A DNA stretch of 64,000 nt from a virus (Duplodnaviria > Heunggongvirae > Uroviricota > Caudoviricetes): IMG/VR virus record IMGVR_UViG_3300031521_000016, positions 35,895-99,894 of that record. One strand, 5' to 3'. A program made the position numbers and the translations under genes. The notes under the pieces are model-generated. The model was given only the letters and a program-made list of their open reading frames with translations. It did not search any database and had not been told where the DNA came from. Position 1 is the stretch's first letter. Every line of letters starts with the position of its first letter. Below, piece by piece: positions 7,715-55,246 of this stretch.

Positions 7715-9340
7715 TTATTTCTCTGTTATTGTTGCATATATTGCAGTACCAAAAGGTACATCAAAAGAAGGATTATTGATTACTAACCAAATAAATTTAG
7801 AAGACATTTTCGATAATTCAGGTACCAAATCTTTGTTCATAGCATGCTCATCACCGTCAGTAATAAATACACCCATTTCCATTTTGCCTGATTTCCATTC
7901 TTCTAACATCTTCATTAGAGGAAGATCGTAGTTTGTTCCACCACCCGGTTCTAATCTAAAGTCAAATACAGGAGGTTGATTCAACATATCGTCATGGTAG
8001 ATTGAGTGATCAAATAGAATCAAGTGAGTCTTTTTGATTTTCTTAGCCATGATAATACCATTAACTTCACCTAGAACATGTTTAAGTCTATCATGTCCCA
8101 TAGAACCTGATGTATCAACAGCAATCATTGCTTTACCTAAGTGTTTAGGTACACCTTTCTTTCTGTCATAAACATAAAGTCCACGTGAGATATGTTTTCT
8201 TTTACCGAGAAATTCTTTTTCTTCAGATGCTATTCTACCTACGAATCTACGTAATTCAGATTTCCAGTCTATTAAAGGACGTGTCAATCTTGCTACACCT
8301 TTTGCTAATAGATTTTTTTCACCAGACATAGTTACTCTAGTTGATACTGCTCTTACTTGATCGGTTAATTTTTGTACAGTTTCATTATTTGGAATATCTA
8401 CTCCTACTCCTAATTCTCTCTGTATCTGTCTACTCAATTCAACAGTTATAGTTCCACCTATACCTTGATCTTCATAACCGTCTCCTTCGATTCGTTTAGT
8501 TTTACGTTCACCATCAGATCCGGTCTTTGAACCGCCTTTCTGTTCCTTTTCGGGTTTTCCAGCTTCTTTTCCGTCTTTATCTTCACCCGATTTTCCAGAT
8601 TTTCCGTCCTTTCCATCTTCACTGTCTTCTCCGTCACCACTTTCTCCGTCACCTTCACCATCTTCCTTATCGTCATCTTCTTCACCATCATATCCATCTG
8701 AATCATTGTCGTCGTCATCATCAGATTCTCCAGGATCTTGGTCGTCATCTCCAGAGTTCATATCTCCCCAACCCGGAGGTGGCGGTGGTTGTTTGTCAGT
8801 CTTTAAAAGCTTATAGATTTCTTCAGCTGCAAGTCCTACATATTCGTCTTTGTATAACCCTTTTAAACTATTTACTAATTGGTCCTTTGTTAATAAACCT
8901 TCATCAACTAGCATAGGATTTATTTCGTGGTCAGCTGCAACATTCCATTTACGTGGTTTTGCGCTAATATTCTGTCTTCTTACAAAATGTAGCATTACAT
9001 TATGTAAAATTTCATGACATAGTACAAATACAATTTCTTGTAAGCTTAGTTTTTCTGTCCAAGTTGGATTTATAAAGATATTGGCACCGTCTGTTGCCAT
9101 AGTTTTTACATGCTTACTGTTTCCAGGGACATATAAAATTCTAAATGAGTATACAAATTCACCAAAGAATGGATATCTACCGGTGATCATAGTAAGAGCT
9201 TTTAATACTCTATTTTTCACCTGATCCAAAGCAGGATCGTCCTGAGAGGAGTTACCCTCTAGGACTGCCTGATTTGATTTCCATGCTGAAAATCTATTAA
9301 AATCCTCAAAAAGAAGTGTTCTAGTTAATTCTTTTCTCAT
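7715..9340 (-). CDS. VWA-domain protein with N-terminal HExxH metallopeptidase-like domain and poly-acidic linker (CobT/DUF2201-like partner of MoxR)
   Basis: HEILH zinc motif, a D/E-rich linker of more than 100 aa, and the VWA MIDAS-like motif VDTSGSM. Confidence 0.7.
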   Translation of the reverse strand: MRKELTRTLLFEDFNRFSAWKSNQAVLEGNSSQDDPALDQVKNRVLKALTMITGRYPFFGEFVYSFRILYVPGNSKHVKTMATDGANIFINPTWTEKLSLQEIVFVLCHEILHNVMLHFVRRQNISAKPRKWNVAADHEINPMLVDEGLLTKDQLVNSLKGLYKDEYVGLAAEEIYKLLKTDKQPPPPPGWGDMNSGDDDQDPGESDDDDDNDSDGYDGEEDDDKEDGEGDGESGDGEDSEDGKDGKSGKSGEDKDGKEAGKPEKEQKGGSKTGSDGERKTKRIEGDGYEDQGIGGTITVELSRQIQRELGVGVDIPNNETVQKLTDQVRAVSTRVTMSGEKNLLAKGVARLTRPLIDWKSELRRFVGRIASEEKEFLGKRKHISRGLYVYDRKKGVPKHLGKAMIAVDTSGSMGHDRLKHVLGEVNGIIMAKKIKKTHLILFDHSIYHDDMLNQPPVFDFRLEPGGGTNYDLPLMKMLEEWKSGKMEMGVFITDGDEHAMNKDLVPELSKMSSKFIWLVINNPSFDVPFGTAIYATITEK

Positions 9341-9354
9341 TTCAATTTATTTCA

Positions 9355-10920
9355 TTAATCTTCATCATTGAAGACATTAGGATATGCATCTATAAGATCT
9401 GCTTTACATACATCTACCCAGTGATCGTCTTTTCTTAAAGCTGGGAAGATTCCTTGAATCATATTCATAGCTTTAACTGAGTTAGGAGCATCTTTAGTTT
9501 TCAATAACCATTGAATAAAGTTGTCTTGTTCTTTTTCAGTTAAAGAATCTTTATCTCTCACATAGTAGCAAACTGCTGATATAAGAGCATGAACTTCATC
9601 TTGTTTAAGTTTACTCCAAGAAGGTGCTTTAGCAGGATTTGTCCATACAAATTTAATATCTTCTGGATTAAATTTATCCATAAGCTTCACGAAACCGGCG
9701 TATGCATTAGCAGCTGCTGGTCCTACAGTAGCTCTAAGAATTGTAAGCTGAACTTTATCAGATACTGATCCTTCAGTTTTTGCAATTTGTTTGATTTTCT
9801 TAGAAGCCATTTCCCATGATCTAGGAGAAGGCCAAGGAGATGACCCAACAGAACCTTCGAATTCATCTAAGTCAAGTAAGTGGAAATATTCTTTGTTCCA
9901 TTTCAAGAATGCTACCATTCTAGGATCAATTAATAATTCACCGGCATCATTTTGTGCTGTTTTAGCCCATGTTTCCCATTCTTCAAGAGTAGGAGCAAAA
10001 TTGACTTGAATTACACGGTTTGATAGGGCAGTATCCCAGTGGAATAATTCCTTTTTAGCATCGATAAGGTCACTACGTCTATTAGCTAGAGCTATAATAA
10101 CCCATTTTGAACCCAATTTATAATCACCGATTTTACGTTCTCTCATAAGTTTTAGACAAACGTCTTGAACTCTTTCATCACATCTAGCGATCTCATCGAG
10201 AAGCAAAATACCTCCTTTTTCACCATTTACTGTCTTTTCTAGTTCTGGTTTTGATAGAGGATATACAGGAAGCATACCGTGTGGCAAAGAAATGTATTCA
10301 ATATCTTCTTTACTATTTCCTACTGTAGCAGGTAAACTGAAATCTTCAGGTCCCATGTTCATTAATGGAAAGTCAAGAATTCTTCTTTGTTTTTCTGCAT
10401 CTACTCCATAAAATTCTTGTGCTAAGGCATAGATAAGAGCAGTTTTACCGATACCTGGAGCTCCCCACATTAGAATTGGATCAGCTTCACCACCAGTTCT
10501 AATAGCTGAACGTAATAGGATTCCCAATGTTTCTCCATCAACATTTTCAATTTTGTCTGTTACCGGAAGCTTTAAATCTATCACATTTTTTTCATCTAGA
10601 GCTGTAACACTTTCGTAAAGAAATGCATTTCTTTTTCCGTTACCACCAGAAAATTCTGTTGGTTTAGATGGCATAGGTGGTATAGAAATAGCTAACCCAA
10701 GTGCTTTAGCTTCTTCGATATCAGCTTTTGTAGGATAGATTACTAATCCTTTAGGTTTTTTAGCCGATTTAACGAAATTGAAAAACCAAGAACCCGATCC
10801 TTTGAAAAAATTACCTACTTTTTCAATAGCATTTTTTATTGTGTCCTTAACTCCTTCGTTTGTGAACTGTGACGAGTCGTAATTTTCGTTGACAAAATCG
10901 TCAAACTTTTTAAATCTCAT
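9355..10920 (-). CDS. MoxR-like AAA+ ATPase (CobS-like)
   Basis: Walker A GAPGIGKT and Walker B LLLDEIARCDERVQDVCLKLM, typical of MoxR/CobS. Confidence 0.75.
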   Translation of the reverse strand: MRFKKFDDFVNENYDSSQFTNEGVKDTIKNAIEKVGNFFKGSGSWFFNFVKSAKKPKGLVIYPTKADIEEAKALGLAISIPPMPSKPTEFSGGNGKRNAFLYESVTALDEKNVIDLKLPVTDKIENVDGETLGILLRSAIRTGGEADPILMWGAPGIGKTALIYALAQEFYGVDAEKQRRILDFPLMNMGPEDFSLPATVGNSKEDIEYISLPHGMLPVYPLSKPELEKTVNGEKGGILLLDEIARCDERVQDVCLKLMRERKIGDYKLGSKWVIIALANRRSDLIDAKKELFHWDTALSNRVIQVNFAPTLEEWETWAKTAQNDAGELLIDPRMVAFLKWNKEYFHLLDLDEFEGSVGSSPWPSPRSWEMASKKIKQIAKTEGSVSDKVQLTILRATVGPAAANAYAGFVKLMDKFNPEDIKFVWTNPAKAPSWSKLKQDEVHALISAVCYYVRDKDSLTEKEQDNFIQWLLKTKDAPNSVKAMNMIQGIFPALRKDDHWVDVCKADLIDAYPNVFNDED

Positions 10921-16342: not shown

Positions 16343-16588
16343 TTAGAATATTTTTATTAAAGATTTACGAGCTGATTCTATCATGACAATAGCATCATAC
16401 AGATCTTTGTCAGGATTCATCTCGTAAATTTTATTTGAATTGATAACTAGTTCCTCGCAGAACTTATTCAGTTGTTTCTTTAGCAGAGCACGATCTTCTG
16501 CCGATAATTTTTCTTTTTCTTCTGTTATAGAAACTGATTTCTTACTCCAGTTTGCACTCCACGTAATGTTGTTAGGGGTCTGTCTCAT
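16343..16588 (-). CDS. hypothetical protein
   Basis: Track ORF. Confidence 0.4.
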   Translation of the reverse strand: MRQTPNNITWSANWSKKSVSITEEKEKLSAEDRALLKKQLNKFCEELVINSNKIYEMNPDKDLYDAIVMIESARKSLIKIF

Positions 16589-17784
16589 TTTAAAAATTTA
16601 AAGTCGCAACGTCTATTTGGTCTATATTTAATTTTTGGATCGTTTAGTTTTCCTCTTCCGTCAGTCTGAATTCTTGATCCGTCGATTTTCCAGACTTTTA
16701 CCATTTCTTTCTTGGTACGTTCTACTCTTTCATCGCTTAACTTAAAATTGTATGGAATATCACCCATATAATCACAGTAACCGACTATTTGAAGTTTCAG
16801 CTTTGGATTATCTTGCATTTTCTTAGCTACTTTACAAATAGTAATCAATGCCCAATCATCTAACTCATATTTATCGAAGTCAAAATAGATGCTTGGAATT
16901 TCATTATCTGTTAAGTTAATAGTATCTACATTATGTTTTCCGTCTAGATTATTATTTCTATTCAGAATATAGGCTGATAATGAGTCGATCTTATTGTCTT
17001 GTGAAATATTTTTCTTTTTTAGTGATTTTATTTCTTTGTTTAGATCATTTATATCAGATTGTAGATTTCTATCTTTCTTCGGATACTTAACCGGTGAAAA
17101 TTTATACGATATGCCTAATGTCGCTAAACCAACTTTATCATTAGTTACTCCTTTGTATGTCCAGATACCTTCTAAATTATCTTTATTGAAACATATATAG
17201 CTCATTTTAGCTAGAATGTCGATATGTTTAGAATAATTATACTTTAAATATACAGAAATAGGTAATGTTACTGCTAATCCATATTTTTCTGTTACTGGGA
17301 AAGTAGGCATAATTCCGGGTGATGGAGACTTAATATGTAACATATCGTCTGCTGTAAGTCCCGGAGTCAAATCGTATGAGTAAAATGAATATCCTAATCC
17401 TACTGAACCATTTACTGTAAGTTTAGATAGTGAGTACGGTAAAATTAAATGCGTAATATCTATTGTAAGGTTTAAACCACCTGTCCAGATATCACTGCCT
17501 ATGTTTCGAGTAACCCCATTTAATCCGGTGTTAGCATTAATAGGTATATAATAACCGTTAGCACTTATTCCCCAAATATGATTAATCTTATATTCGAGAT
17601 TTAATCCGGCTGTTACTCCCCACACCGAACTTGGGAAAATATTCTTGAGAGACTGATTAATGTCTCCATCGAATCTGTTTAGACCAACTTCTGGTGTAAC
17701 AGACCACTTTGAGTAAGTGGGATAATTGTATGCATTACTATTCAATGACAGTAAACATACTAGAAATAGTATTAATTTTTTCAT
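16585..17784 (-). CDS. OmpA-family outer-membrane protein
   Basis: Signal peptide, a beta-rich N-terminal half, a coiled-coil linker, and a C-terminal OmpA peptidoglycan-binding domain (IYFDFDKYEL...LQIVGYCDYMGD...N..LSDERVE). Confidence 0.7.
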   Translation of the reverse strand: MKKLILFLVCLLSLNSNAYNYPTYSKWSVTPEVGLNRFDGDINQSLKNIFPSSVWGVTAGLNLEYKINHIWGISANGYYIPINANTGLNGVTRNIGSDIWTGGLNLTIDITHLILPYSLSKLTVNGSVGLGYSFYSYDLTPGLTADDMLHIKSPSPGIMPTFPVTEKYGLAVTLPISVYLKYNYSKHIDILAKMSYICFNKDNLEGIWTYKGVTNDKVGLATLGISYKFSPVKYPKKDRNLQSDINDLNKEIKSLKKKNISQDNKIDSLSAYILNRNNNLDGKHNVDTINLTDNEIPSIYFDFDKYELDDWALITICKVAKKMQDNPKLKLQIVGYCDYMGDIPYNFKLSDERVERTKKEMVKVWKIDGSRIQTDGRGKLNDPKIKYRPNRRCDFKFLK

Positions 17785-20103: not shown

Positions 20104-20940
20104 TTATTGCAAGTATACTGTCAATATATCGTCGAAGAACTCTTTGTTCTGTGTAAAGATCGGCGTTTCAACAGCTTCCCATTTATTTCGTCTTGCTCCA
20201 TTCTTTAGATACTCAACCTTTTTAATGATTGCTCCTCGCTTCCTGCGGTAATCATACTCATTCCAATTGATACCTTTTTCAAAGATCATATCTTGCATTA
20301 CATCTGTTTTCTTACCGTGTAGTTCTTTTGGGCTGTATAAGCTTTGAGCTACAGAAGAAATAGAATTGCGAGTGGCATCTTGCTGTCTCCAAATGAAATA
20401 ATTTATAACTTCCTGTCTAGCTGGAATAGTGAATACTCTAGCATCAAATTCAGCTAATTTTTTGAAGCATCCCATGATGTCATCATGTGTCTGAAAAACA
20501 AGATTTTCAAATTTTGACAGAGCACGTTTGATTCGCAATTCATTAAACTTATTAGTTGCCATAGAAGCTGATACACTTACAATCTTTTGGATATTATTAT
20601 CGTACCATGCATCGGTTGTTACATCATCGAAATCAGTAATTAATACTGAGATTTCATCAGATTGGACGTAAGCACATTTAGCACCTTGGATATTTTTACA
20701 CAGATATGCTGCAGTAAGATTCATATCTTCAATTAATCCATCATCAAATGGACGTTGCAACCCTTTCGTGTAAGTATGAAATGCTTTTCCATCGATTCTG
20801 ATTACTGCATATGTACGTCTGGGTAGATACATTCGAGTTCTGTTCTCGTAGAACTCTTTCATCCTGTTCCCTAAATCATCTTTTTTATTTTCCACGGTCG
20901 GTGTAATATTTAATGTATAATGCTTGTTGTCTGATGCCAA
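20104..20940 (-). CDS. Thg1-like tRNA 5'-guanylyltransferase (TLP)
   Basis: FYENRTRMYLPRRTYAVIRIDGKAFHTY...RPFDDGLIEDMN...CAYVQSDEISVLITDF matches the Thg1 catalytic core (RxDG, PFD, SDEIS). The start may be the internal M27. Confidence 0.75.
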   Translation of the reverse strand: MASDNKHYTLNITPTVENKKDDLGNRMKEFYENRTRMYLPRRTYAVIRIDGKAFHTYTKGLQRPFDDGLIEDMNLTAAYLCKNIQGAKCAYVQSDEISVLITDFDDVTTDAWYDNNIQKIVSVSASMATNKFNELRIKRALSKFENLVFQTHDDIMGCFKKLAEFDARVFTIPARQEVINYFIWRQQDATRNSISSVAQSLYSPKELHGKKTDVMQDMIFEKGINWNEYDYRRKRGAIIKKVEYLKNGARRNKWEAVETPIFTQNKEFFDDILTVYLQ

Positions 20941-22006: not shown

Positions 22007-23263
22007 TTAGTTGCTAATTTCTATAATATAGCGGATAGTAGCTTGCGATATATCGTAAATGATGTATTCATTGTTTCGTAAGTCTGCTCCACCCTCAGCG
22101 AATACAGAATCGAAACCATCAGCTGCAAGATTCTTTTTATTTAGCCCGTAATTAGAACGTGTTACATGTTTCTGATTTCCTACGTGAAAGTCAAATAATG
22201 CCAAGAAAGCAGTAGCAGCAGAACCTCTCGCCCAGTATGAACCGGATAATGATGTATAGCCGATAGACTTTTGTGCTTTATCAGCTCCATAGATACCGTC
22301 TCCGAACATAGAACCAGAATATACTGCTCCAGATGGTCTAATCAAAAGCCCTGTCTGTAAAATGTTAAGCCAGTTTTCATTTCTAGAACCATGCCAGAAT
22401 GTTTGTATCTTTTTATTTTTAGCTGAATCTACTTGTTTAATGAAGCGTTCTTCTGTTTGTATATTTTTTACACCGAATGCTCTAACGAATTGTTTAGCAT
22501 TTGGCCCCATAAGCGATTTGATTTTTTGAACTTCTGCATCTGTAATTTCTACCATTTCAAGACCAAGCATCTTTAATGTATCAACTTTTTCATCTGCATC
22601 ATCTTCTTCTCCACCATTTTCTGCAAGTTTTTGTTTCTTCAACATTTCAACTTGTCCTGCCATAGTATCTAAAAGTTTTTGTTCTTTGTCCATCATGTCG
22701 AACAGAGTTTTGTTTTTTGTATCTTTTAGATCGAAGTCTTTGGGTAAAAGATGATAACTTACATGCTTCATCTTTCTAGGTATAATCGAATACAGCTCTA
22801 AGAATAAGTTGTTGATATCATTAACCGTAAGAGTGGATAATCCGGCAGATATCGTATTAATGATGCCTTGTGCTGCATCAACTTGTTGTTGTGTAACGTC
22901 AGATTGAGAAATCGTGTAGTTTTCTTCTACCGTCTTTTTAGCAAAAGCTTGTAGTCTGTCGAAGAATAACTTAATCTTAGCATTAGCAATCTGAGTAATC
23001 GTTTTCTTCTTGCCGGTTTTAACATCAGTAGCAGTGGCTCCAATAGATTCGATGAATAGTGTGGTTACATCTTTATAACCTTTTTTCGTTTTCGCTCGAT
23101 ATGTCTTTTCCCATTCTCTAATCGGATAAGTTTTTTCAGCTGGTTTACCTCCTTGTACTCTACCATATACGACTGTGAATGTTCCATTTTCATTATCAGT
23201 CATATGATAAAATTTGTTGTTATTTTCACTGGTCACCATGACCAATTTTACTACTTTCCCCAT
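22007..23263 (-). CDS. PARP-like ADP-ribosyltransferase with N-terminal WGR domain
   Basis: WGR-like N-terminus (NNKFYHM...VVYGRVQGG...KGYKDV). Catalytic domain FWHGSRNENWLNILQTGL...GDGIYGADKAQKSIGY...NNEYIIYDISQATIRYIIE aligns with the PARP1 H-G-S / Y-Y / E triad. Confidence 0.8.
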   Translation of the reverse strand: MGKVVKLVMVTSENNNKFYHMTDNENGTFTVVYGRVQGGKPAEKTYPIREWEKTYRAKTKKGYKDVTTLFIESIGATATDVKTGKKKTITQIANAKIKLFFDRLQAFAKKTVEENYTISQSDVTQQQVDAAQGIINTISAGLSTLTVNDINNLFLELYSIIPRKMKHVSYHLLPKDFDLKDTKNKTLFDMMDKEQKLLDTMAGQVEMLKKQKLAENGGEEDDADEKVDTLKMLGLEMVEITDAEVQKIKSLMGPNAKQFVRAFGVKNIQTEERFIKQVDSAKNKKIQTFWHGSRNENWLNILQTGLLIRPSGAVYSGSMFGDGIYGADKAQKSIGYTSLSGSYWARGSAATAFLALFDFHVGNQKHVTRSNYGLNKKNLAADGFDSVFAEGGADLRNNEYIIYDISQATIRYIIEISN

Positions 23264-25374: not shown

Positions 25375-25983
25375 TTACATGAAGAGATCAAGCTTGTCGA
25401 TTAACGTATTTACTTCATCAGAAAAAACAGAACTTTTTTTGACTGTCGTAACATTGTTTGGACTATACATTTCTACCCAATTATACCCAATTAATAGTTG
25501 AGGAATTTCAAGTGGTTTATTACCACGATATTCATAGACATAATTTCCATCTGATCTTGATTGATATTTATATCTGAAATCTGGGTGACCAACTTGTGCA
25601 CTGACACTTACATAAATCTTGTCTGATGTAGTAGATATAGTTTTTGTTTCTCTCACTTTAGGGTTGTAAATATTATTCCTATTCGAGTTCGAATCGAACT
25701 CTTTCTGATAAAAACCTGACGATCCCGATATTCCATCAGAACCTGATGGGCCACGACCTGTTTTAACGGGTTCTGTACGTATCCACGGTTGATCATTTGG
25801 ATATGAGACGGCTTTTGCTTCATTTTCTTTTATCCAATGTTTCTCTCTCTTTTCTTCTAACGAAGCGGGAATTACACTTGGAATATGCTTTACATTCACA
25901 TTTATAATCTCATGTTCTTTTATAGAACTCACTGTTTTTTCGACTCCGAAAAATTTCTTTATTTTGTCATAAAATTTACTCAT
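25375..25983 (-). CDS. hypothetical protein
   Basis: Track ORF. Confidence 0.5.
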   Translation of the reverse strand: MSKFYDKIKKFFGVEKTVSSIKEHEIINVNVKHIPSVIPASLEEKREKHWIKENEAKAVSYPNDQPWIRTEPVKTGRGPSGSDGISGSSGFYQKEFDSNSNRNNIYNPKVRETKTISTTSDKIYVSVSAQVGHPDFRYKYQSRSDGNYVYEYRGNKPLEIPQLLIGYNWVEMYSPNNVTTVKKSSVFSDEVNTLIDKLDLFM

Positions 25984-26369
25984 AACATCATATCATTAGA
26001 TAAGTTATCTGCCCATGATGATACATTTAGTTCTGAAGGCATTACAAGACCTCCATGATCTTCTATAAACTCTTTCTGTGTCAAAATATGTTCGATTCTC
26101 ATAGTATGAGTACGACTACCAGAAGAGTTTGGTTCTATTGTTTCTATTAACCCTTCATTTGCATCAATTACACTTAAGATTTTAAGCTCGAAGAAATTTG
26201 TCTCATAACCACCGTCTGTATCTTCATGATAGTACTTATGATTCATATCTAAACTATCCATCATTCTTTTTCGACGGAGCAACTTAATATTTGTGTTCTT
26301 TATTTGAGCTTCCCAGTCTTTTCCGAGAAGCTCTTTCAATTCAAATTCAGTTAATGTATAATTTCTCAT
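25980..26369 (-). CDS. hypothetical protein
   Basis: Track ORF. Confidence 0.5.
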   Translation of the reverse strand: MRNYTLTEFELKELLGKDWEAQIKNTNIKLLRRKRMMDSLDMNHKYYHEDTDGGYETNFFELKILSVIDANEGLIETIEPNSSGSRTHTMRIEHILTQKEFIEDHGGLVMPSELNVSSWADNLSNDMML

Positions 26370-26668
26370 ACGATAAGTTTTAGATTTTTAGCACGATTAT
26401 ACATTTCACGATAGACTTCATTTTCTAAGAATTTATCTACACTACCAGACATATATTGTCCAGGCACATCTCCATATACGATTGCAGCACAAGGTTCGAT
26501 ATCGTCCATAAAAATGCCCAGATCATAATTACAACCTTTACTATCAGTAAATGGACCTAGATATGTACAATAGCTCCACATCCACTCAACAGCAGATGGA
26601 TAAAACAATAAAGTTACTACTGTTGAAAATTTAGGCTTTGCTTTCTGCGATTCCTCGTTCATATTCAT
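26366..26668 (-). CDS. hypothetical protein
   Basis: Track ORF. Confidence 0.45.
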   Translation of the reverse strand: MNMNEESQKAKPKFSTVVTLLFYPSAVEWMWSYCTYLGPFTDSKGCNYDLGIFMDDIEPCAAIVYGDVPGQYMSGSVDKFLENEVYREMYNRAKNLKLIV

Positions 26669-27056
26669 CTTCTTTTATAAAAGTTGCGTTGTCTTGTAGT
26701 TCAGGATATTTTCTCCACTCTTCCGGTACGTCTCCTTGACGCCATAAGTTGTTCGTATATCTAAAAGAACCATCTTTCATCTTTATGTAGAATTTTCTAC
26801 CACCGTGACCTGCAAAACGAGTTACTCCTGAAAGTTCACCACTGCCATGATATCTAGTGCCATCCACGATATAAGTATGTTCGTCGAATAATTGAATTTT
26901 TTCAATCCAAAATGCACAATTGAAGCAACATTTTTTGTCGTTCATGATATCTGATAGATTGCCTGGATGCATACCCTCAGTGCTGATCCAGACTCTATTA
27001 TGCGGATCGTGTGATTCTTCTCTATTGCATATTGAGCATCTTAGTTCAGTGTCCAT
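26631..27056 (-). CDS. hypothetical Cys/His-rich protein (possible zinc-binding)
   Basis: CSICNREESHDPH near the N-terminus and a later CCFNC motif. Confidence 0.45.
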   Translation of the reverse strand: MDTELRCSICNREESHDPHNRVWISTEGMHPGNLSDIMNDKKCCFNCAFWIEKIQLFDEHTYIVDGTRYHGSGELSGVTRFAGHGGRKFYIKMKDGSFRYTNNLWRQGDVPEEWRKYPELQDNATFIKEDEYERGIAESKA

Positions 27057-27499
27057 TAATCTTGCGATAAAAGTTCTTCTAATACGATCAATCTTTGTCT
27101 TTCTTTTTCTTCAGGAGATAATAAAGTTCCCAACTCAGCTTCAATAAGCTCTAGTTGCTTTTTCTTTTTTGAAACACCGATTACGTCTATGCGCAATTGC
27201 AAGTCTGTCTTCCATTGATCGATAGGATAGCCTTGCCATACATAGTCACTTTTCTTTACATTCAATTCACCGGCCGCTTTTTCGAAATAATCAGCTCTCA
27301 TTAATAAGAATGCCCACATTTCTACAATTTGTGCTACTTGTTGAATAGTGTGTAGATTAACTCTGGTACTAGAAAGTTCAGGATTAAAACTGAATGAGCA
27401 GTTGGTCAACCATGTAGGTTTTTCGATTTTCTTAATCTCTGCTCTTTTCTTTTCTGCTAACTTAAGCAGATCGTGAATTTTTTGATCGTTATTTGCCAT
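27056..27499 (-). CDS. hypothetical protein, paralog A of a duplicated about 150-aa family
   Basis: Shares WQGYPIDQW ... LSPEEK ... LLSQD with 29554-30006 (FLGYSIKDW ... LSPDDK ... LLSDD). Confidence 0.5.
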   Translation of the reverse strand: MANNDQKIHDLLKLAEKKRAEIKKIEKPTWLTNCSFSFNPELSSTRVNLHTIQQVAQIVEMWAFLLMRADYFEKAAGELNVKKSDYVWQGYPIDQWKTDLQLRIDVIGVSKKKKQLELIEAELGTLLSPEEKERQRLIVLEELLSQD

Positions 27500-27500
27500 T

Positions 27501-28646
27501 TTAATTGATGTGTATAGTTGTTTTTGAATTATTTTTTAGTTTGAGTGCTATTCTGACAAATGGTAATGTCGGTAAATCTGTTCTGTCATACAGTGTGATC
27601 ACTTTCTTAGAAAGTTCTTTTATGATTATTTCACCGAATAGATCAAATTCTATTGTACTTACTTTGGTAAGTGTGAACGTTTTAAATGTATAGTTGCGCT
27701 CTCCATAACTATAATATCCATTCGCGTGGTTTTCATTTTTTATTTTATGAGCAGTAAACTTGAAAACATCGAATGTATTACCAAACGGACCATCAGTTTT
27801 TATATACACTTTATCCGGTAGTACATAATCTTGGTCATCCGCTATTGGTTTACGATATGTTGATTTAAAGCTTAATTTGACATCTTCTGTCCAGAACTTA
27901 TTTACAACTCCGAAACATGGTTGAAGTAATAATTTTTCTATCAGATCTGAAAGATTAGATACAGGTGTAGAACTTATTTCTGATGCTATAGATGTTAAAT
28001 CAGATTTAGCTTCATAATTTTGACGTTTAACGTTATATACTACGTGTTTCTTAGAAGGTGTACAGTCAGATGATGAGCTCCAAGTCCGATAATCATAATG
28101 CATAAATTTGCCGAGATAGATTACAGGCTCTTGTTTTTTGTTTTCATATTCTCCACCAATAATCATTTCAGATGATTTTACTTTCTTGGCTTGAATAGAA
28201 GTAAATTCTTTCGATTTCTTATATTCTAAACTACAAGTAGGAATCAAAACGAGATCAGATTTATCCCATGCATATACGAAATCACCATCAAGTCCTTTTC
28301 CTTGGAATGAAGTTGTTTCCGATAAGATGAAAAGAAGGTTTGCAATAGTTATTTCAAACTCAAATCCTCTTGGATCGTAAATTCTAATCTTTTCATTACG
28401 GGCATTCCAACCCCAACGTTCTCTTGCTCCACCTACACCTTTATTTAGAACGAATCCAGATAATGGTGAATTATCGAAATCATCTACACCTAGTTTAGAC
28501 TGAATCCAATCTTTCCAAGATGTTTCTTTGCGTAGTTTGCCTTTCTGATCAATATACACTACATAAGCTAATTTGCCAGTGTAAGTATCCGATCTTTCAT
28601 TATACCCAACTTTTATTGTCTGCGGTATGTATAATTGTTCATTCAT
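27501..28646 (-). CDS. hypothetical protein (381 aa)
   Basis: Track ORF. Confidence 0.5.
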   Translation of the reverse strand: MNEQLYIPQTIKVGYNERSDTYTGKLAYVVYIDQKGKLRKETSWKDWIQSKLGVDDFDNSPLSGFVLNKGVGGARERWGWNARNEKIRIYDPRGFEFEITIANLLFILSETTSFQGKGLDGDFVYAWDKSDLVLIPTCSLEYKKSKEFTSIQAKKVKSSEMIIGGEYENKKQEPVIYLGKFMHYDYRTWSSSSDCTPSKKHVVYNVKRQNYEAKSDLTSIASEISSTPVSNLSDLIEKLLLQPCFGVVNKFWTEDVKLSFKSTYRKPIADDQDYVLPDKVYIKTDGPFGNTFDVFKFTAHKIKNENHANGYYSYGERNYTFKTFTLTKVSTIEFDLFGEIIIKELSKKVITLYDRTDLPTLPFVRIALKLKNNSKTTIHIN

Positions 28647-29554
28647 CGTCTTATTTCTTCGGTTTCTCGTGAATATGTATGAGTGTGTCTAGCATACTCA
28701 TTAGTTTTTATATTGTACCATACTGTAAAATCTTCATTCGTAATTACTCTTTTACCTAACCAAGTAGGAGCATGATTCCAGTTATCTACACTAGAATAGT
28801 AATCAGACGTGATTAAACATTCAGTTTGATCACTAGTTATAGATACTTTTATGTCTTTTTGATTTGGCAGACATACCGGGGTATTGTTATCGACCAATAT
28901 AAACTTTTTCTTGGCATTCTCTAGAACTAAAAATTTTCTATATTTTAAGACTAAAGAATTGATACGTTCCTTATAATTTTCGTTTAAAAGTTTTTTTACG
29001 CCGTTCACTTTGGCATAATATGCATCTTTATCCATAGCCGGATCTGCTTCATGGCATAATTTATCGACATATGTCTGAATTTTAAATTCTTCACGTATTT
29101 TACGAGCTAGATCATCAAATTCATCATTTATTTCATATCGACGTCTTTTAGCAACATCATATATTTTAGATGCTACTTTCCATCCAAGTACTTCATCAAT
29201 GCTTTTATTCTTATTACCTTTCATTGCCAATTGCTGTTCAGTAGTTAGCTTAATAAAATGATCTTCAGACAATTCAGCAATACATGGGATATACATATTC
29301 AGTTTCAATTTAGAGTACCATCGTGATTCTCTAAAACCTCCGGTCACATCGACCCAATTTACTCGATCAATTATGCTTAAGATATGATTAAAGCTTACTG
29401 TTTTAGAAAGCATGAAAGATGTGTGGAAGTTTTTTACTTCTTCTAACATCTTTAATGCCTTCTGCTCTTGTATCAAAAAGAATTCGAGATTCTTATCGGC
29501 ATGATAGTCTTTTTCCTTGAGATGGATATCAGTATAAACTGATTCCTTTTCCAT
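28643..29554 (-). CDS. hypothetical protein (303 aa)
   Basis: Track ORF. Confidence 0.5.
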   Translation of the reverse strand: MEKESVYTDIHLKEKDYHADKNLEFFLIQEQKALKMLEEVKNFHTSFMLSKTVSFNHILSIIDRVNWVDVTGGFRESRWYSKLKLNMYIPCIAELSEDHFIKLTTEQQLAMKGNKNKSIDEVLGWKVASKIYDVAKRRRYEINDEFDDLARKIREEFKIQTYVDKLCHEADPAMDKDAYYAKVNGVKKLLNENYKERINSLVLKYRKFLVLENAKKKFILVDNNTPVCLPNQKDIKVSITSDQTECLITSDYYSSVDNWNHAPTWLGKRVITNEDFTVWYNIKTNEYARHTHTYSRETEEIRR

Positions 29555-30006
29555 TAATTGTTGATAGATTCTTTTAATGCTGAATCATCAGAAAGCAAAC
29601 TTTCAAGCTCGATCATGTCACGGGTAAACTTATCGTCCGGTGAAAGATGTGTTTCCAATACATGGATAGCTTGTTCGTTCTTTTGATACTGTAAAATATT
29701 TTTGATTTGTTCAGCTCTAGTTTTTACATCGTCTGACCAATCTTTAATAGAATAGCCCAAGAACGTGTTGTCTACGGCAACTTCTAAACCCAATTCTTTA
29801 GCAGCTTCAGCACCTACAATAGATTGATTTTTAATAAATGCAAGAGCAGAAATACATTCGCCTAAAGATTCTAATTGATTAATGAATCCAAATTGCTCTA
29901 GTTTACGATTGACCGCATATTTAGCTTCTTGGATTTTATTCCATAGTGCTTTATTTTCATCAATAAGAGAATTCTGTTTGTCTAAAATTTGTTCACGTTT
30001 TAACAT
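29554..30006 (-). CDS. hypothetical protein, paralog B of the duplicated family
   Basis: See 27056-27499; length and motif order are collinear. Confidence 0.5.
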   Translation of the reverse strand: MLKREQILDKQNSLIDENKALWNKIQEAKYAVNRKLEQFGFINQLESLGECISALAFIKNQSIVGAEAAKELGLEVAVDNTFLGYSIKDWSDDVKTRAEQIKNILQYQKNEQAIHVLETHLSPDDKFTRDMIELESLLSDDSALKESINN

Positions 30007-30025
30007 ATATTATTTTTTAAAAATT

Positions 30026-30958
30026 TTAAAATACTAGGGATGACTTTGTTTCCCATCTGAAATACAATTTTGCATTTTCTCTAAGAACCAGATACTTGTA
30101 CGTATCTTTTATTTCAGATGCCATGCAATCATCATCTACACATATAGACATTTCATCTATGTCATATAGATTTGCACCAAATGGTAAAATAGTCAATAAT
30201 CTGTATGAAGTTTTCACATACTCTACGATAGCATTATAGAAATGCTTACTCGCATTCTCATCTATCCATTTATCGATTTCTGAGTTCGATTCAGATTTAT
30301 AGAGTTTTCTGAATGTTACTTGATCAGCTCCTAGAAATTTACATCTGTCGATTATCGCTTTTGGACTATAGTTATCGAAGTCATTAACTAAATTTATAGA
30401 TAATCTGATATTGAAATCTAACTCTTTTGCAAGGGCAATTTTATCGAATACATTAAATTCAGTACTTTTGGCACATCCTATTAATTCTAAATTGCGTAAA
30501 TTATCAACTATGTTTGAAATTGAAAATGAAATAGTAGTAACTCCAATACGACGTAAATGCGTCAAATTTGATTTATCCAGTAATACACCGGTAGTTTGTA
30601 GTTCGATGCTTTTAAATGGTGAAGTCAATCTTGAATTGATCTCAGAGAAGAAATCTAAGAATTGTGGATTTTGAATAGGTTCACCTGTACCAGTTAATAC
30701 TACTGTGTTACAGCCGTTATCTCTAGCAAATTGCAATCGATTAAAATAATCTTTGTAATACTGAGAGTCTTTAGAAATTATTTTATCTAATGCATGTCTT
30801 CTGGCTAAAGATGTGTTAAACTCTTTAAAATTCGGTTTAATCAACGCAGATATAACGTCATTGTATGGATTAGTATGAGTTCTACTAACACAAAATTTAC
30901 AGTGATTTATACATTTGTTCTTCGTCGGAACAACGATACTAAGACTTTGGATATTCAT
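30026..30958 (-). CDS. radical SAM enzyme
   Basis: CINHCKFC (CX3CX2C) at residues 16-23 and a downstream GTGEP SAM-binding motif. Confidence 0.7.
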   Translation of the reverse strand: MNIQSLSIVVPTKNKCINHCKFCVSRTHTNPYNDVISALIKPNFKEFNTSLARRHALDKIISKDSQYYKDYFNRLQFARDNGCNTVVLTGTGEPIQNPQFLDFFSEINSRLTSPFKSIELQTTGVLLDKSNLTHLRRIGVTTISFSISNIVDNLRNLELIGCAKSTEFNVFDKIALAKELDFNIRLSINLVNDFDNYSPKAIIDRCKFLGADQVTFRKLYKSESNSEIDKWIDENASKHFYNAIVEYVKTSYRLLTILPFGANLYDIDEMSICVDDDCMASEIKDTYKYLVLRENAKLYFRWETKSSLVF

Positions 30959-30984
30959 ATTGCTTTAGTTCTGAATTATTATAA

Positions 30985-30994
30985 AAATATAACA
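30985..30994 (-). promoter_or_regulatory. TGTTATATTT motif
   Basis: Between terminator 31008-31037 and the radical SAM start at 30958. Confidence 0.4.
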
Positions 30995-31007
30995 TATATT
31001 TTCACAC

Positions 31008-31037
31008 AAAAAAAAAGGAGTATCGCCACGATACTCC
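31008..31037 (-). terminator. rho-independent terminator (9-bp stem GGAGTATCG/CGATACTCC, 3-nt loop, then T9)
   Basis: Perfect stem followed on the minus strand by TTTTTTTTT; downstream of the flotillin gene stop. Confidence 0.7.
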
Positions 31038-31060
31038 TTTTGATATTAAGAAAGGTATTT

Positions 31061-32923
31061 TTATTCTTTAACGTCTGGTTTAGTCAATGGTTTTGTCGTT
31101 TCATCAGAGTTACGGACCATCTTTAAAACTTCCATACCTAATATACCATTTAATGCTCCATTTCCTCCTTCACCATTACCCGAAACAAGGACTTCAGGAA
31201 TAATTTTCACGTTGTTTATACCGATTTGTTCGATCACCTTAAACTTGGCGAAATTATCTTGACCCATAGAATCAACTTGCAATTTGTAAGATTCAGCAGT
31301 AGCTCTACCAATTGCTTCGATCTTGGTAGCTTCAGCCTTACCGGTAAGTTCAATTTGTGTTGCTTCAGCATCTGCATTAACCTTTTTAGCTTCAGCTTGA
31401 GCTCCAGCTTTAAGTTTAATTGCTTTTGCTTCACCTTCAGCTCTTTTTACTTCAGATTCTGCATTTCGTTGTGAAATTTCAACTTGTTGTTGAGCATTTA
31501 CAACTTCTCTTTGCATGTCTGCGATAGCTTCAGCAGATGCTAAAGTTTTTCTCATATCTTGAGCTTTTCTTTGTGTTTCAAATGTAACCTCTTGTTCCTG
31601 AGCAATTTTACGGTCAGTAAGAGTTTTCATAAGTTCGATAGGTGGAACAATATCACCGATTAGTGTATCAACGGCATGTACATTATATTCTTCTAATACT
31701 GCTGAGATTTTAGCTTTTGCGTCACCTTGTTTCTCTTGACGGTGGCCTAAGAATTCGATAACATCTGCATCTTGAGCAGAATTTCGGAAATAGTTACCGA
31801 TTGTTGGTTCAAGAACCTGTGATACCATGTTTTGCATAGATCCGAATCGGGCAATAACTTTAGGAGCTTCAGTAGATGGAACGTGAATGATCTGAGATAC
31901 ATCAAGGTTGAATGGGAAACCATCTTTTGAACGAACAGTAATAGTATTCAGATTCTTATCCAAGTTATGTGATTCTGTTCTTGCATTTGCCCAATTTAAT
32001 ACAAGATTTGTAGTAGGCACAACTTCAATCTTATGTGTATAAGGATTAATCGGATACTTACCTGGATTCAAAGTTTCAATCCATACACCCTTTTCACCTT
32101 TTTTCACGATGTTACCATGTTTGAAGTTTGCTCCGGTTACATCTTCACCTTCTTTTCCAACAAATGATATAACTACTCCAGCAGTACCAATTCCGATTTC
32201 AGTCATCGGTTTCTTTTCAATTTCCACTGCCCATGGGTTAAGTGAATATGTACCAGCCTGAATAACTTGCTCTTGCATACCTCTTTCTCCGCCATTTGCT
32301 AAGAATGTTTCAAAATCTTGGAAGTTATTATGACCATCGATAGTTGGACCAGCAATATTACCAGCACCTAATTGTACACCATCTAATGCAGTAACAATAC
32401 CTATCATTCCATCTTCTATAGATACAATATCAGTTTGGAATACATCGAACAATAAAGTATTAAGTCTGTATACACCAGTATTAAGATACCCAAGTTGTCT
32501 ACCACGTTTACCGCCATTGTTCAAGAATAGTCTGGCATTTTGAAAATTGTCAGAGTCTACACTACGAGCAAGCATAGTACCATCCGGTAATTTCTGTCCA
32601 TCTTTTGCGGAAATGATTCCTAATCTACCCTTTGGAATAACAGTAAGTGGTTCTTGCTTAATTTCATATTGCCAAATCCACTTAAACCAGTACAAACCTG
32701 GTGCTAATGTATCAGCTTGATAACCTGCTTCACCGTTTAATGCGATAATTTTACCGTCGGGTAACGATTTTTCTTTTCCGAATAGCACGAATTTTTTGAT
32801 GACAAGACCAATCTTATCTTCAGGAATAATAATCATCCCAAAGAATACTCTTAAGATGAACTTGTAAAATACAAGGGCTAGTACAACTACTGGCACCCAC
32901 CAATACGCTAATAATGCAATCAT
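31061..32923 (-). CDS. flotillin-like SPFH/band-7 protein
   Basis: N-terminal TM, SPFH-like core, and a C-terminal A/E/K-rich coiled-coil flotillin tail (AEAKKVNADAEATQIELTGKAEATKIEAIGRATAESY). Confidence 0.6.
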   Translation of the reverse strand: MIALLAYWWVPVVVLALVFYKFILRVFFGMIIIPEDKIGLVIKKFVLFGKEKSLPDGKIIALNGEAGYQADTLAPGLYWFKWIWQYEIKQEPLTVIPKGRLGIISAKDGQKLPDGTMLARSVDSDNFQNARLFLNNGGKRGRQLGYLNTGVYRLNTLLFDVFQTDIVSIEDGMIGIVTALDGVQLGAGNIAGPTIDGHNNFQDFETFLANGGERGMQEQVIQAGTYSLNPWAVEIEKKPMTEIGIGTAGVVISFVGKEGEDVTGANFKHGNIVKKGEKGVWIETLNPGKYPINPYTHKIEVVPTTNLVLNWANARTESHNLDKNLNTITVRSKDGFPFNLDVSQIIHVPSTEAPKVIARFGSMQNMVSQVLEPTIGNYFRNSAQDADVIEFLGHRQEKQGDAKAKISAVLEEYNVHAVDTLIGDIVPPIELMKTLTDRKIAQEQEVTFETQRKAQDMRKTLASAEAIADMQREVVNAQQQVEISQRNAESEVKRAEGEAKAIKLKAGAQAEAKKVNADAEATQIELTGKAEATKIEAIGRATAESYKLQVDSMGQDNFAKFKVIEQIGINNVKIIPEVLVSGNGEGGNGALNGILGMEVLKMVRNSDETTKPLTKPDVKE

Positions 32924-42394: not shown

Positions 42395-43588
42395 TTATCT
42401 TGATGCACTAGGCCTGGGAATCCTTCCCTTTTCTACTTCAGGTCTATTACTTATTCTACTTTTTTTGACATGCCTAATTTGATCATTACAATTTTTCCAT
42501 CTCATGGATATGAGTAAATTGTTGATATAGTCACGATCTGGAGATTCTTGCATGTCGGATTTGTCAAATGCTTCATTTACTTGTTTCATCAAGTCTTCAG
42601 CTTCATTAACTAAATCTTCATATTCATATTCTCCTTTTCTGATAGCTAACAATTTATCTCTATTTGTGCGTCTTACATTTATTCCTTTGCCTTGCGCAAT
42701 CTCTAATGACATTTCAAGCAAACGTAAAGTATGTGCTAAATTTTTACCGTCATATCCTTTTCCGTGCAACATGTTATCATTGAAACGGTGAACATTCCTT
42801 TTGGCAACCCATTCCCAGTATTCTTTATATTCTTTGCAGTATACAGAATAACCTTCCATGTTAAATTGCATTAAGAAATCTGGTTTTATACCACTTGGAA
42901 TATTACTAAGACTTACATCCATCGCAGTTTCTTCGTCTGAAACAATACCTCTATAGTAATCAGATATGAGAATGCCTTGTTCTCTAGCAAGAAATTGATT
43001 ACGATTATAGTATACACCGTATGTGTTTTTCATATGAGGTAGTGCAACTAATCCACAACAATCTTGTACCATGTCGTTCATTCGTAAGTACTCTTTAACG
43101 TTAATAGAGCCTTGCTTCCATTGAACGAAACAGAATTCTAAAATGCTTTTGCGTTTTTCATCGAACTGTTTAACAATCTTTTTGTTCAATCCTCTAGCTT
43201 TCTTTATTTGTTGAGTAGCATACCCACCAAATGAATTTTTACAGAGCTTAGAGATAAATTTATCTCTATTTTCGAGGATCATATCGAATATTGGTGCTTT
43301 ATAAATTACACAATCTTCAGGTGTATTCAAAAGCTCTATGATATTAGGATTGTTAGTGTATATTAATTCCAAAAATTTTCCTAATTCGTAGAATGTGATA
43401 TCGTTCATTTCATCAGATACTTGATCGTCATATTCTAATCCAAGAATTTTATCGATAGGTTGCATGAATACACCACGTATGTCTGTATCAGAAGTTTCTG
43501 TTGCAGTACCATATGCGTGTGAACCAGCGATAACTTCATAAATTATCAGTCCATTATCTCGTAAATCTTGTAAAGTTAATTTCTTCAT
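42395..43588 (-). CDS. Pol-beta-superfamily nucleotidyltransferase (RlaP/PF10127-like; CD-NTase/OAS-like not excluded)
   Basis: GSHAYGTATETSDTDIRGV is the G[S]-x9-DxD nucleotidyltransferase motif followed by RGV, as in RNA-repair-associated predicted nucleotidyltransferases; 397 aa. Confidence 0.6.
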   Translation of the reverse strand: MKKLTLQDLRDNGLIIYEVIAGSHAYGTATETSDTDIRGVFMQPIDKILGLEYDDQVSDEMNDITFYELGKFLELIYTNNPNIIELLNTPEDCVIYKAPIFDMILENRDKFISKLCKNSFGGYATQQIKKARGLNKKIVKQFDEKRKSILEFCFVQWKQGSINVKEYLRMNDMVQDCCGLVALPHMKNTYGVYYNRNQFLAREQGILISDYYRGIVSDEETAMDVSLSNIPSGIKPDFLMQFNMEGYSVYCKEYKEYWEWVAKRNVHRFNDNMLHGKGYDGKNLAHTLRLLEMSLEIAQGKGINVRRTNRDKLLAIRKGEYEYEDLVNEAEDLMKQVNEAFDKSDMQESPDRDYINNLLISMRWKNCNDQIRHVKKSRISNRPEVEKGRIPRPSASR

Positions 43589-47901: not shown

Positions 47902-48101
47902 GTTCTATGCTCATCTAAAAATTGAATCTTAGCTTCAGCTTCAGATTCTTCGATATACAAGATTTCCACGGTTAATGCTTCAATCTTACGTTGTAGTAGA
48001 ACTAAATCGTGTTCTAATTTACGTTTCTGTATTTCTAATTCTCTCAACTGAGCTGCTTTTTCGTCTTCATAAGCATATATGCTCATTCCTGTACTTTTCA
48101 T
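47898..48101 (-). CDS. small coiled-coil protein
   Basis: Track ORF. Confidence 0.4.
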   Translation of the reverse strand: MKSTGMSIYAYEDEKAAQLRELEIQKRKLEHDLVLLQRKIEALTVEILYIEESEAEAKIQFLDEHRT

Positions 48102-49828
48102 CTTATTATTTTTATACGTTTTTGAAATTCTGGTGGAAAATTATTTCTGCTATTTCTGAATAAATCAGAGAGGCATCCGTCTAAGAAGTACGTTATTGCC
48201 CAATCATCTTTTGATCGTATACTTCTACCTACTCCTTGAAGTATTGCATTACATGTTTTCCAGTTGTACCATTCTGGCATATATTTAAGCTTTGCACTTA
48301 CAAACTTATCTCCTAATGATGGATATGGTACTTTTAAGAAAATTTGGAATCGTGATTTCTCATTCATTAAGTCTAAGCCTTCTAATATTGAAGGCCCCAT
48401 TAATACAGCATTCGGTATGTCATTGAATCGTTTTAATGCGTCATCCTTTTCTTTTGAATTACTATAGAGAATAATTCTCTGTTGTTCTTGAAAGTCTAAT
48501 GCATTAAATAATTTTGACGATATTTCATATGAACCACTATGAATTATACCACTGTCGGTTTCATGAGATCGTAGAAGTTCTTTGACTTTATCCTTCATCC
48601 AATCAAAGTTAGCTTCACGTTTAGCCATACTCATACGTTTGTCGGGATAGAAAAAGATAGGAGAATTATTGAAATCAAACTTCGATTCCATTCTCATGTA
48701 TTTAACTTTACTTGCTCCTATAGTCTTCATGAAATCTTTAGGATCGCCCATAGTAGCAGTCATTAAAAGCTTGAACTTAGCTTGTTCATGAAAGTGTCTA
48801 TTCATCATGTAAGATTCTTCTAGACAATTAAAAACTGCTCCTCCTTCTTGAGGATTCTTAACAATAAAATCTACCCCAACCTGAGAGATAATGTGATTAT
48901 AGTCTTCAAATTTACAGTGTGAATCTGATATGAAATCCGCTTGGGCAAAGGCAGCTCGCCAATCTCTTGGTATAGCTTTAGTAGATGGAAATCTAGAAGC
49001 AGCTTCTTTTTTCATAGGTTCTGCTGCTCTTGCATAATCACGTAAAAACAGTTCTATGTCTTTTAGTACAATAAATAGCTTTCCATTATCTTCCTCTTCT
49101 AATAAAGCTTGAATTATACGTTTTACTCTTGATGGCTGCCTAGAAGGTGCTGGAAATCCAGTCTTCTTTAGAAAAGCATAAAAATCTTCAGCTTTCTGTA
49201 CAAAATCTACGTTAATTTTTGGACTAAAGTGATTTTGTACAATCTCAGAAACTTTATGTGCTTCATCACATATCGTAAAATCTCTTATTGGGAAAGGTAC
49301 ACTTTTATTCTGTTCTTGCATTTTACCATCTACATAATTACGTTGCAATATCCAATACGGATATGTCATTAACGTTGTATATGATTTTATTGCCTTTTTT
49401 CTATTTACTAAATATCCGCATTCGTTAAAACATGGTAGTTCCTCAGCATCCTCATAAGATACACCCTGTAATTTACAGTCACCTAATGAAAATTTTTCGC
49501 CATTTACTGCACAAGTATAATTATCTATACCCTTGATATAGCCAAATCTATCAATTCGTTCAATATCTTTTAAGTATTGATCGAATAGTGATAGATCTGA
49601 TGCTAGAATATAACCTTTCATGTTATACTCATTTAATAAACTAGAAAAGAGAATTGCTATTACTGACTTACCAGAACCTGTAGGTGCATCTAATAAGTAA
49701 AGATTTTTTTCTCCTTTGAAAAAAGTATCTAGTATGTCTACTAGAACTTCAAATTGTCCATCTCGAAATTCAAAATTATCGCCGAGAAGTTTCTTTGCAT
49801 GTCGTATTATAGTATTATGGTCTATCAT
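48098..49828 (-). CDS. SF2 DEAH-box helicase
   Basis: Walker A DAPTGSGKS, DEAH box ICDEAHKV, and motif VI QGVGRSIR. Confidence 0.75.
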   Translation of the reverse strand: MIDHNTIIRHAKKLLGDNFEFRDGQFEVLVDILDTFFKGEKNLYLLDAPTGSGKSVIAILFSSLLNEYNMKGYILASDLSLFDQYLKDIERIDRFGYIKGIDNYTCAVNGEKFSLGDCKLQGVSYEDAEELPCFNECGYLVNRKKAIKSYTTLMTYPYWILQRNYVDGKMQEQNKSVPFPIRDFTICDEAHKVSEIVQNHFSPKINVDFVQKAEDFYAFLKKTGFPAPSRQPSRVKRIIQALLEEEDNGKLFIVLKDIELFLRDYARAAEPMKKEAASRFPSTKAIPRDWRAAFAQADFISDSHCKFEDYNHIISQVGVDFIVKNPQEGGAVFNCLEESYMMNRHFHEQAKFKLLMTATMGDPKDFMKTIGASKVKYMRMESKFDFNNSPIFFYPDKRMSMAKREANFDWMKDKVKELLRSHETDSGIIHSGSYEISSKLFNALDFQEQQRIILYSNSKEKDDALKRFNDIPNAVLMGPSILEGLDLMNEKSRFQIFLKVPYPSLGDKFVSAKLKYMPEWYNWKTCNAILQGVGRSIRSKDDWAITYFLDGCLSDLFRNSRNNFPPEFQKRIKIIR

Positions 49829-54928: not shown

Positions 54929-55246
54929 TTATGTTATTTTAATCCAGCCTTCTCCGCCTGGACCACATTCATTTTCTATAGTTATCTTTATCAGTTTTTG
55001 ATTCTCATAACCTCCAGCTCTTATAGCTATTGGCATAAATTCTTTTTCTAACATCTCTTCATCGAAGGGATGACTATCTCCTAAGCATACAAATACATGA
55101 TTCTCTTTCTCGTTAAGATATACATCACCGTATTCACCATTGCAAAGAATTGCAATGGCATACGCATAATGTTGAAGTTTAGCAAAATCGATAGGTCCCG
55201 GATATTTAACGTCTTCGTTAAATTCTTTGTATTTCTTTATTCTCAT
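54929..55246 (-). CDS. hypothetical protein
   Basis: Track ORF. Confidence 0.45.
   Translation of the reverse strand: MRIKKYKEFNEDVKYPGPIDFAKLQHYAYAIAILCNGEYGDVYLNEKENHVFVCLGDSHPFDEEMLEKEFMPIAIRAGGYENQKLIKITIENECGPGGEGWIKIT

Follow-up and report, generated by a model that had tools for sequence, protein, structure and literature searches.

We analysed a string of genes on the minus strand of a 64,000-nucleotide stretch of DNA, referred to here as the window, which forms positions 35,895 to 99,894 of the IMG/VR record IMGVR_UViG_3300031521_000016 (Caudoviricetes). The string begins with a gene for a radical SAM enzyme (rSAM) and continues with two small helical proteins of about 150 residues (P150 and P147), two large proteins (P303 and P381), and a series of short open reading frames (ORFs). 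The window is a 33% GC stretch of an uncultured large phage. Identical copies of its proteins were found only on metagenomic contigs (up to 140 kb), and no near-identical DNA was found for the region among 50,697 sequenced phage genomes. Rfam and tRNA scans of the window were empty.

Organization of the gene string

The six genes from rSAM to P141 had been delineated in a first-pass annotation of this DNA, and the ORFs lie exactly where it placed them, all on the minus strand. In what follows, the pair formed by P150 and P303 is termed cassette B, and the pair formed by P381 and P147 cassette A. The features of the locus are as follows.

31013..31041, minus strand: strong intrinsic terminator of the upstream SPFH gene (13-bp stem, T-run)
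30978..31005, minus strand: promoter-like site, GTGAAA-16-TATAAT, 20 nt 5′ of the rSAM start codon
30026..30958, minus strand: rSAM, 310 aa; ORF for a radical SAM enzyme that stands alone; its family occurs mainly on huge-phage contigs
29554..30006, minus strand: P150, 150 aa; divergent (P150-type) member of the phrog_2574 family, gene 1 of cassette B
28643..29554, minus strand: P303, 303 aa; large partner in cassette B, from a very small family
27501..28646, minus strand: P381, 381 aa; large partner in cassette A, phrog_2475, beta-rich
27056..27499, minus strand: P147, 147 aa; orthodox phrog_2574 small protein, gene 2 of cassette A
26631..27056, minus strand: P141, 141 aa; Cys/His-rich, lineage-specific ORFan
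25375..26668, minus strand: P100, P129 and P202; three overlapping lineage-specific ORFans that end the translationally coupled string

Transcription proceeds in the order rSAM, P150, P303, P381, P147, P141, P100, P129, P202. A spacer of 19 nt separates rSAM from P150; from P150 onward, neighbouring genes abut or overlap by 1-4 nt (P150 and P303 share 1 nt; P147 starts at 27499, right after the end of P381 at 27501), with the single exception of P141 and P100, which overlap by 38 nt. Because a terminator and a promoter-like site lie 5′ of rSAM, and no further minus-strand terminator was found between rSAM and the end of P202, these nine genes probably constitute a single transcription unit. 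The promoter-like site is its probable start, as a consensus match only, since such sites are no more numerous in the region than in shuffled sequence. P202 itself (25375-25983, minus strand) is followed by a non-coding gap of 283 bp.

Comparison with three strain variants (L012-L014, 92-100% identical) gave ratios of nonsynonymous to synonymous substitution (dN/dS) of 0-0.34 for all nine genes; this purifying selection implies that they are real coding genes. The most divergent is P202, with 91.9% nucleotide identity compared with 97-100% for its neighbours and a dN/dS of 0.34. The gene arrangement is also kept in these variants, which belong to the same species as the window phage and therefore lend it no independent support. 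P141, described earlier as Cys/His-rich, does carry a CxxC...CCxxC pattern; it was not found next to either cassette in other loci and, like P100, P129 and P202, is lineage-specific.

Two cassettes with paralogous small proteins

The proposed paralogy of the two small proteins is borne out far beyond chance. P150 and P147 align by BLASTP with E=6e-9 (26% identity over 104 aa), and both match phrog_2574, P147 over its full length (E=3.9e-18) and P150 over its C-terminal half (E=2.8e-6). An independent hidden Markov model (HMM) built from 63 homologs of other phages gives 139 bits (E=7e-44) for P147 and 42 bits for P150 (E=5e-14, over HMM positions 15-140 of 141). P150-type proteins have a signature of their own (…HLSxDDKFxxDM…) and lack the TNCxF motif of the P147 type. 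The two are best read as subfamilies of ancient origin, each of which serves a large partner of its own, the two partners being non-homologous. Homologs of P150 were found neither in IMG/VR nor in any sequenced phage, and a profile of the P147 family gave no significant match in the PDB. A PADLOC HEC-05 match of P150 was absent from 11 other family members and was taken as coiled-coil noise.

In cassette A, P381 matches phrog_2475 with E=2.1e-70 (profile positions 3-237 of 383). Conservation is strong over the N-terminal ~240 residues, where numerous polar positions do not vary, and the C-terminus is variable; a profile of the family had no significant match in the PDB. The metagenomic collection holds 2,328 homologs, and tblastn finds matches in 185 phage records (139 from Bacillus, 15 from Prevotella, i.e. 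Lak), which include Bastillevirinae and Lak megaphages along with Vibrio phages of ~190 kb, C. difficile LIBA phages, PA5oct, fHe-Yen9-04, RsoM2USA and XacN1. Among the phage matches listed, every annotated homolog is a 'hypothetical protein'.

The pairing of this large protein with a P147-type gene is nearly invariant. Such a gene occurs in 76 of the 79 P381 loci in IMG/VR, immediately downstream and on the same strand in 73; in one further locus it lies 104 nt away, in two others only a second P381 paralog, in tandem with the first, intervenes, and of the three loci without it, two are cut by the contig end. The dependence holds in the other direction as well, all 12 tblastn matches of P147 falling in phage records in which P381 has a match too; in the seven Bacillus phage records with both positions listed, P147 lies ~0.8-1.3 kb downstream of the P381 match on the same strand. 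A P147 homolog follows the P381 homolog in Vibrio phage pv27, C. difficile phage LIBA2945, Bacillus phage BCP8-2 and the metagenomic locus L015. Known members of phrog_2475 and phrog_2574 include Bacillus phage W.Ph. gp153, BCP8-2_093/_091, pv27 CDS0164/0165 and LIBA2945_00120/_00119, and cassette A of the window has the same gene order and tight adjacency as in these phages, although the two families had not previously been described as an obligate pair. What sets the window phage apart from them is the additional, divergent phrog_2574-type gene P150, whose partner is unrelated to phrog_2475. Neither a second small-protein paralog nor the rSAM family of the window occurs within 6 kb of P381 in any of the 79 loci.

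The cassette is not entirely static. A gene noted as T5orf172-like lies between the P381 and P147 homologs of BCP8-2 (L003, 6215-6994); since T5orf172 is a domain typical of homing-endonuclease-like genes, insertion of a mobile element into the cassette is suggested. In four other phages, P381 is duplicated ahead of a single P147-type gene (L016, 4781-7179; L031, 5995-8051; L032, 5992-8990; L087, 6001-9011), the copies lying side by side or at most ~600 bp apart, which is the converse of the two small-protein versions in the window. What surrounds cassette A differs from locus to locus; of 53 non-redundant loci, 14 have RNA or DNA end-processing genes (Rnl2, Thg1, HD, RlaP, and metallo-beta-lactamase (MBL)/RNase Z-like) no more than 6 kb away, including three in which an Rnl2-type RNA ligase is directly upstream.

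Cassette B is far rarer. P303 gave no matches in a word-indexed search or in IMG/VR, nor in Pfam, PHROG or the PDB, and an exhaustive phmmer search recovered seven clusters among 1.84 billion representatives (its own and six relatives). Members share an invariant-rich N-terminal motif of ~50 aa. In all four independent contexts fetched, a P150-type gene is directly upstream of the P303-type gene, with phmmer similarity to P150 of E=1.8e-38 (L096/97, a 179-kb contig), E=1.2e-17 (L095), E=1.1e-20 (L098) and E=7.4e-13 (L099); across these four lineages the pair retains 24-48% identity. No P381- or rSAM-family gene was found in the cassette-B loci, where the DNA searched extends 6 kb to each side in L096 and the contigs of L095 and L099 measure just 1.3-1.7 kb. 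Two genes downstream of the pair in L098 lies a weakly P303-like ORF (5860-6618, phmmer E=1e-5), which may be a P303 paralog.

Several further relationships were considered and set aside. P303 is not a diverged P381 paralog, as would be expected from duplication of a whole cassette (BLASTP negative; hhalign probability 0.15-0.3%), and a relationship of P303 to the small-protein family was likewise rejected on comparison. A pair of 398-aa and 151-aa proteins upstream of cassette B in L098 was rejected as a remote cassette A.

The radical SAM enzyme

That rSAM is a CX3CX2C radical SAM enzyme was confirmed. It matches PF04055 above the gathering score (36.3 versus 29.5 bits); the cluster motif is CINHCKFC (residues 16-23), whose three cysteines (C16, C20, C23) show no variation among 27-28 homologs. 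As expected of a superfamily member, the protein folds into a partial TIM barrel and has the SAM-binding motif GGE. TGTGEP occupies residues 89-94, and an insert of 40 residues, modelled with low confidence, separates the cluster loop from GGE. Additional invariant cysteines (C83, C206, C278) are scattered. PF04055 is the only domain detected, and no auxiliary cysteine cluster of the SPASM, twitch or MoaA type was found.

By sequence, the enzyme can be assigned at the superfamily level only. Its structural neighbours (GDGT-MAS 7tom, viperin 5vsl, MoaA 1tv7) recall the 'MoaA/NifB/PqqE/SkfB-like' group; its scores fall short of every subfamily model. NCBIfam subfamily models, among them those for tungsten-cofactor maturase, MoaA and PqqE, give 13-34 bits where 130-650 would be required, the best of them 31-34 bits against 284-400, and SPASM-family models reach 18-34 bits (cut-offs 380-445). 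The MoaA model TIGR02666 gives 31 bits (cut-off 284), and the C-terminal CX2CX13C cluster is not in the sequence. Viperin models (NF038283 and PADLOC pVip) did not match, PADLOC gave nothing for this protein, and the family profile had no match among PDB sequences. With NrdG, the activase of anaerobic ribonucleotide reductase (RNR), the enzyme shares its occurrence in phages and an N-terminal cluster motif. A canonical RNR activase is nevertheless ruled out: the NrdG equivalog models TIGR02491, TIGR02495 and TIGR02826 gave no match at E <= 0.1, whereas a true phage NrdG (L038), used as a positive control, scored 177.9 bits (E=1e-52) in the same library. The partner reductase NrdD was not found among the window's ten largest ORFs by Pfam scan, what remains of the phage genome, at least 140 kb, lying beyond the window.

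Homologs of rSAM number 1,333 in the metagenomic protein collection, unnamed or with generic radical SAM labels only. Sequenced phages contribute two records, which represent one and the same uncultured 735-kb phage, LR756501, and 185,579 species genomes contribute four contigs of metagenome-assembled genomes (MAGs), where the neighbours are uninformative (ankyrin-repeat genes and proteins of no assigned function). About 11 independent ortholog contexts were available, mostly on huge-phage contigs and at 38-68% identity: at 60-68%, L005 (a 531-kb contig), L006-L009, L010, L011 and one place listed without DNA; at 38-40%, L004 (38%, LR756501) and the MAG contigs L102-L104. None of them carries P150, P303, P381 or P147 by tblastn, phmmer or HMM searches. 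The closest relatives have a common neighbourhood consisting of an S1-domain gene, NusG, rSAM, thymidine kinase, a sensor (histidine) kinase and polyA polymerase, with which the window has no synteny beyond rSAM itself. The enzyme is thus an independently inherited gene with no conserved partner gene.

Some of these contexts have peculiarities of their own. In L011, on a huge-phage-like contig, an IS605 OrfB/TnpB (Cas12f1-like) gene (8660-9874) is directly 5′ of the rSAM ortholog, and in L010 a DUF723 gene of homing-endonuclease type comes after it. On the L006 and L008 contigs (126-236 kb), rSAM is located within very long runs of co-directional 55-100-aa ORFs without family matches, an unusual gene-size landscape for these phages. 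A literature search on rSAM in huge phages and on the phrog_2475 and phrog_2574 identifiers found nothing relevant.

Interpretation and alternatives

Taken together, these data favour, with a probability of roughly 0.7, a region that is one probable transcription unit composed of independently inherited pieces rather than a radical SAM pathway, in which each of the two paralogs is dedicated to its own partner. The pieces would be the stand-alone rSAM, the rare cassette B, the very widespread cassette A of large myoviruses and jumbo or megaphages, and the ORFans P141, P100, P129 and P202. The small proteins appear to bracket the large ones because two cassettes of mirrored order (small-large, then large-small) are neighbours, an adjacency specific to the window phage lineage; they do not flank one unit, as had been thought.

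Strict adjacency, a common strand, overlap of start and stop codons, and co-conservation lead us to infer that each small protein would form a stoichiometric complex with the adjoining large protein, in which its role might be that of a partner, an adaptor or a regulatory subunit. The cassette A product could then be a complex that is not part of the virion and acts on nucleic acid by binding or processing it, a speculative role proposed because P381 resembles SH3/Tudor/KOW/MazF-like small barrels and its genes lie in replication and RNA-repair neighbourhoods. In the comparison with these barrels, including the MazF, Kid and CptN toxins, only a small part of the 381 aa aligns, sequence similarity is lacking, and the scores are too low for inferring homology or activity.

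A number of observations weigh against this reading. The cassette-B sample is small, at five lineages, two of them on contigs shorter than 2 kb. P381-P147 fusion proteins were absent among 120 homologs. In PA5oct, the most distant P381 relative examined (25% identity), the next gene is dCMP-deaminase-like and not a P147 homolog; this downstream deaminase also led us to reject PA5oct as an experimentally profiled homolog. Furthermore, rSAM lies only 19 nt 5′ of P150 and is probably co-transcribed with it, so a lineage-specific functional link between the enzyme and the cassettes could exist in the window phage.

The last point leads to the proposal of the first-pass annotation, in which rSAM acts on or with P303 and P381 in one module, with the paralogs as module-specific chaperones or recognition subunits, for instance in nucleic-acid modification or the maturation of a peptide or protein. 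It draws on the contiguity and probable co-transcription of the genes from one promoter, on the arrangement kept in L012-L014, and on the presence of a radical SAM gene of some kind within two genes of cassette A in 3 of 53 other loci. The same-species status of L012-L014 removes the second of these arguments, and the radical SAM genes beside cassette A in L025, L038, L041 and L044 proved to be members of unrelated families (NrdG, an RlmN/Cfr-like one and a third). Moreover, rSAM has neither a SPASM nor a twitch domain, no precursor-peptide-like gene is present, and the ~11 rSAM contexts without the four cassette genes, together with the 0 of 79 P381 loci that hold this rSAM family, largely refute a single rSAM-centred module, which we consider improbable. 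Of its elements, the notion of dedicated subunits survives in altered form, each paralog partnering the adjacent large protein (73 of 79 loci for cassette A, 4 of 4 for cassette B) in separate cassettes. Two observations had been named beforehand as telling against the proposal; the enzyme did not turn out to be a canonical RNR activase, and the paralogs are indeed not conserved as a pair elsewhere (0 of 79).

The large and small proteins may also be envisaged as effector and neutralizer. Each cassette would then be a toxin-antitoxin-like, exclusion or anti-defence pair, with P381 and its MazF/Kid-like barrel as an effector and a small helical protein as its neutralizer or regulator; we deem this unlikely. 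It is very improbable that the cassette products are a virion or assembly component and its dedicated assembly chaperone. A large beta-rich protein whose C-terminus varies, next to a small helical partner, is the typical make-up of a fibre and its chaperone, and a T4-like portal protein (gp20 family, 55246-56964, minus strand) is also encoded in the window; however, annotated phages place the cassette among genes of replication and nucleotide metabolism (DNA ligase, HD or MBL hydrolases, RNA ligase), the PA5oct homolog lacks the virion mass-spectrometry flag carried by nearby genes, and structural similarity to tail or fibre proteins in BFVD does not exceed noise. Finally, P150 could be seen as a recent, decaying tandem duplicate of P147, and P303 as a meaningless or very young ORFan, in which case the pair would have no biological significance. 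Such an origin might account for the much lower score of P150 against the family profile (42 versus 139 bits) and for the failure of the word-indexed and IMG/VR searches with P303, but it is refuted by the conserved P150-P303 pairs in four other lineages, as well as being at odds with purifying selection on both genes (dN/dS 0-0.28) and with the signature motif of P150-type proteins, and is hardly credible.

Beyond the gene string, the portal protein, an OmpA-domain protein (16585-17784, minus) and a DinG/Rad3-type helicase (48098-49828, minus) confirm that the window derives from a large myovirus-type phage. Directly 5′ of the rSAM unit is a membrane-anchored SPFH/Band-7 protein of 620 aa (31061-32923, minus; PF01145, E=4e-25), and Band_7 proteins also occur near cassette A in two other phages. 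The window further encodes a PARP-catalytic-domain protein (22007-23263, minus), a Thg1-like tRNA-His guanylyltransferase (20104-20940, minus; identified via locus L012, which is 97-99% identical) and the RNA-repair nucleotidyltransferase RlaP (42395-43588, minus), which suggest an RNA-repair or ADP-ribosylation toolkit. Elsewhere, an AAA ATPase (PF00004/AAA_5, MoxR-like; 7715-9340, minus) adjoins a DUF2201 metallopeptidase/VWA protein (9355-10920, minus), a pairing of ATPase and VWA genes that is familiar from cellular genomes.

For the reading of independently inherited pieces, the consequence is that the region contains no new radical SAM pathway; what remains is a variant of a catalogued phage gene pair and an unassigned phage radical SAM family. 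The latter, with more than 1,300 sequences nearly confined to large-phage contigs and, beyond the four MAG contigs, missing from cellular genomes, is a reasonable target for enzymology. A second, rare small-subunit subfamily with an unrelated partner hints at a reusable partner module, and in a more tentative extension, which we regard as possible but doubtful, phrog_2574-type proteins would be a partner or adaptor family joined to at least two non-homologous large proteins, cassette A would encode a near-core complex of many large phages, possibly with a new nucleic-acid activity (e.g. RNA or DNA end processing, or repair), and the window would be the only known genome with both versions side by side. 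If this were true, the cassette A complex would span Bastillevirinae, Lak megaphages, Vibrio and C. difficile myoviruses, and several jumbo phages. In any case, phrog_2475 and phrog_2574, two separate 'unknown function' entries in the catalogue, make up a nearly constant gene pair in ~185 sequenced large phages and thousands of metagenomic ones, and because these include genetically tractable Bacillus and Vibrio phages, this widespread unit is directly testable as a complex.

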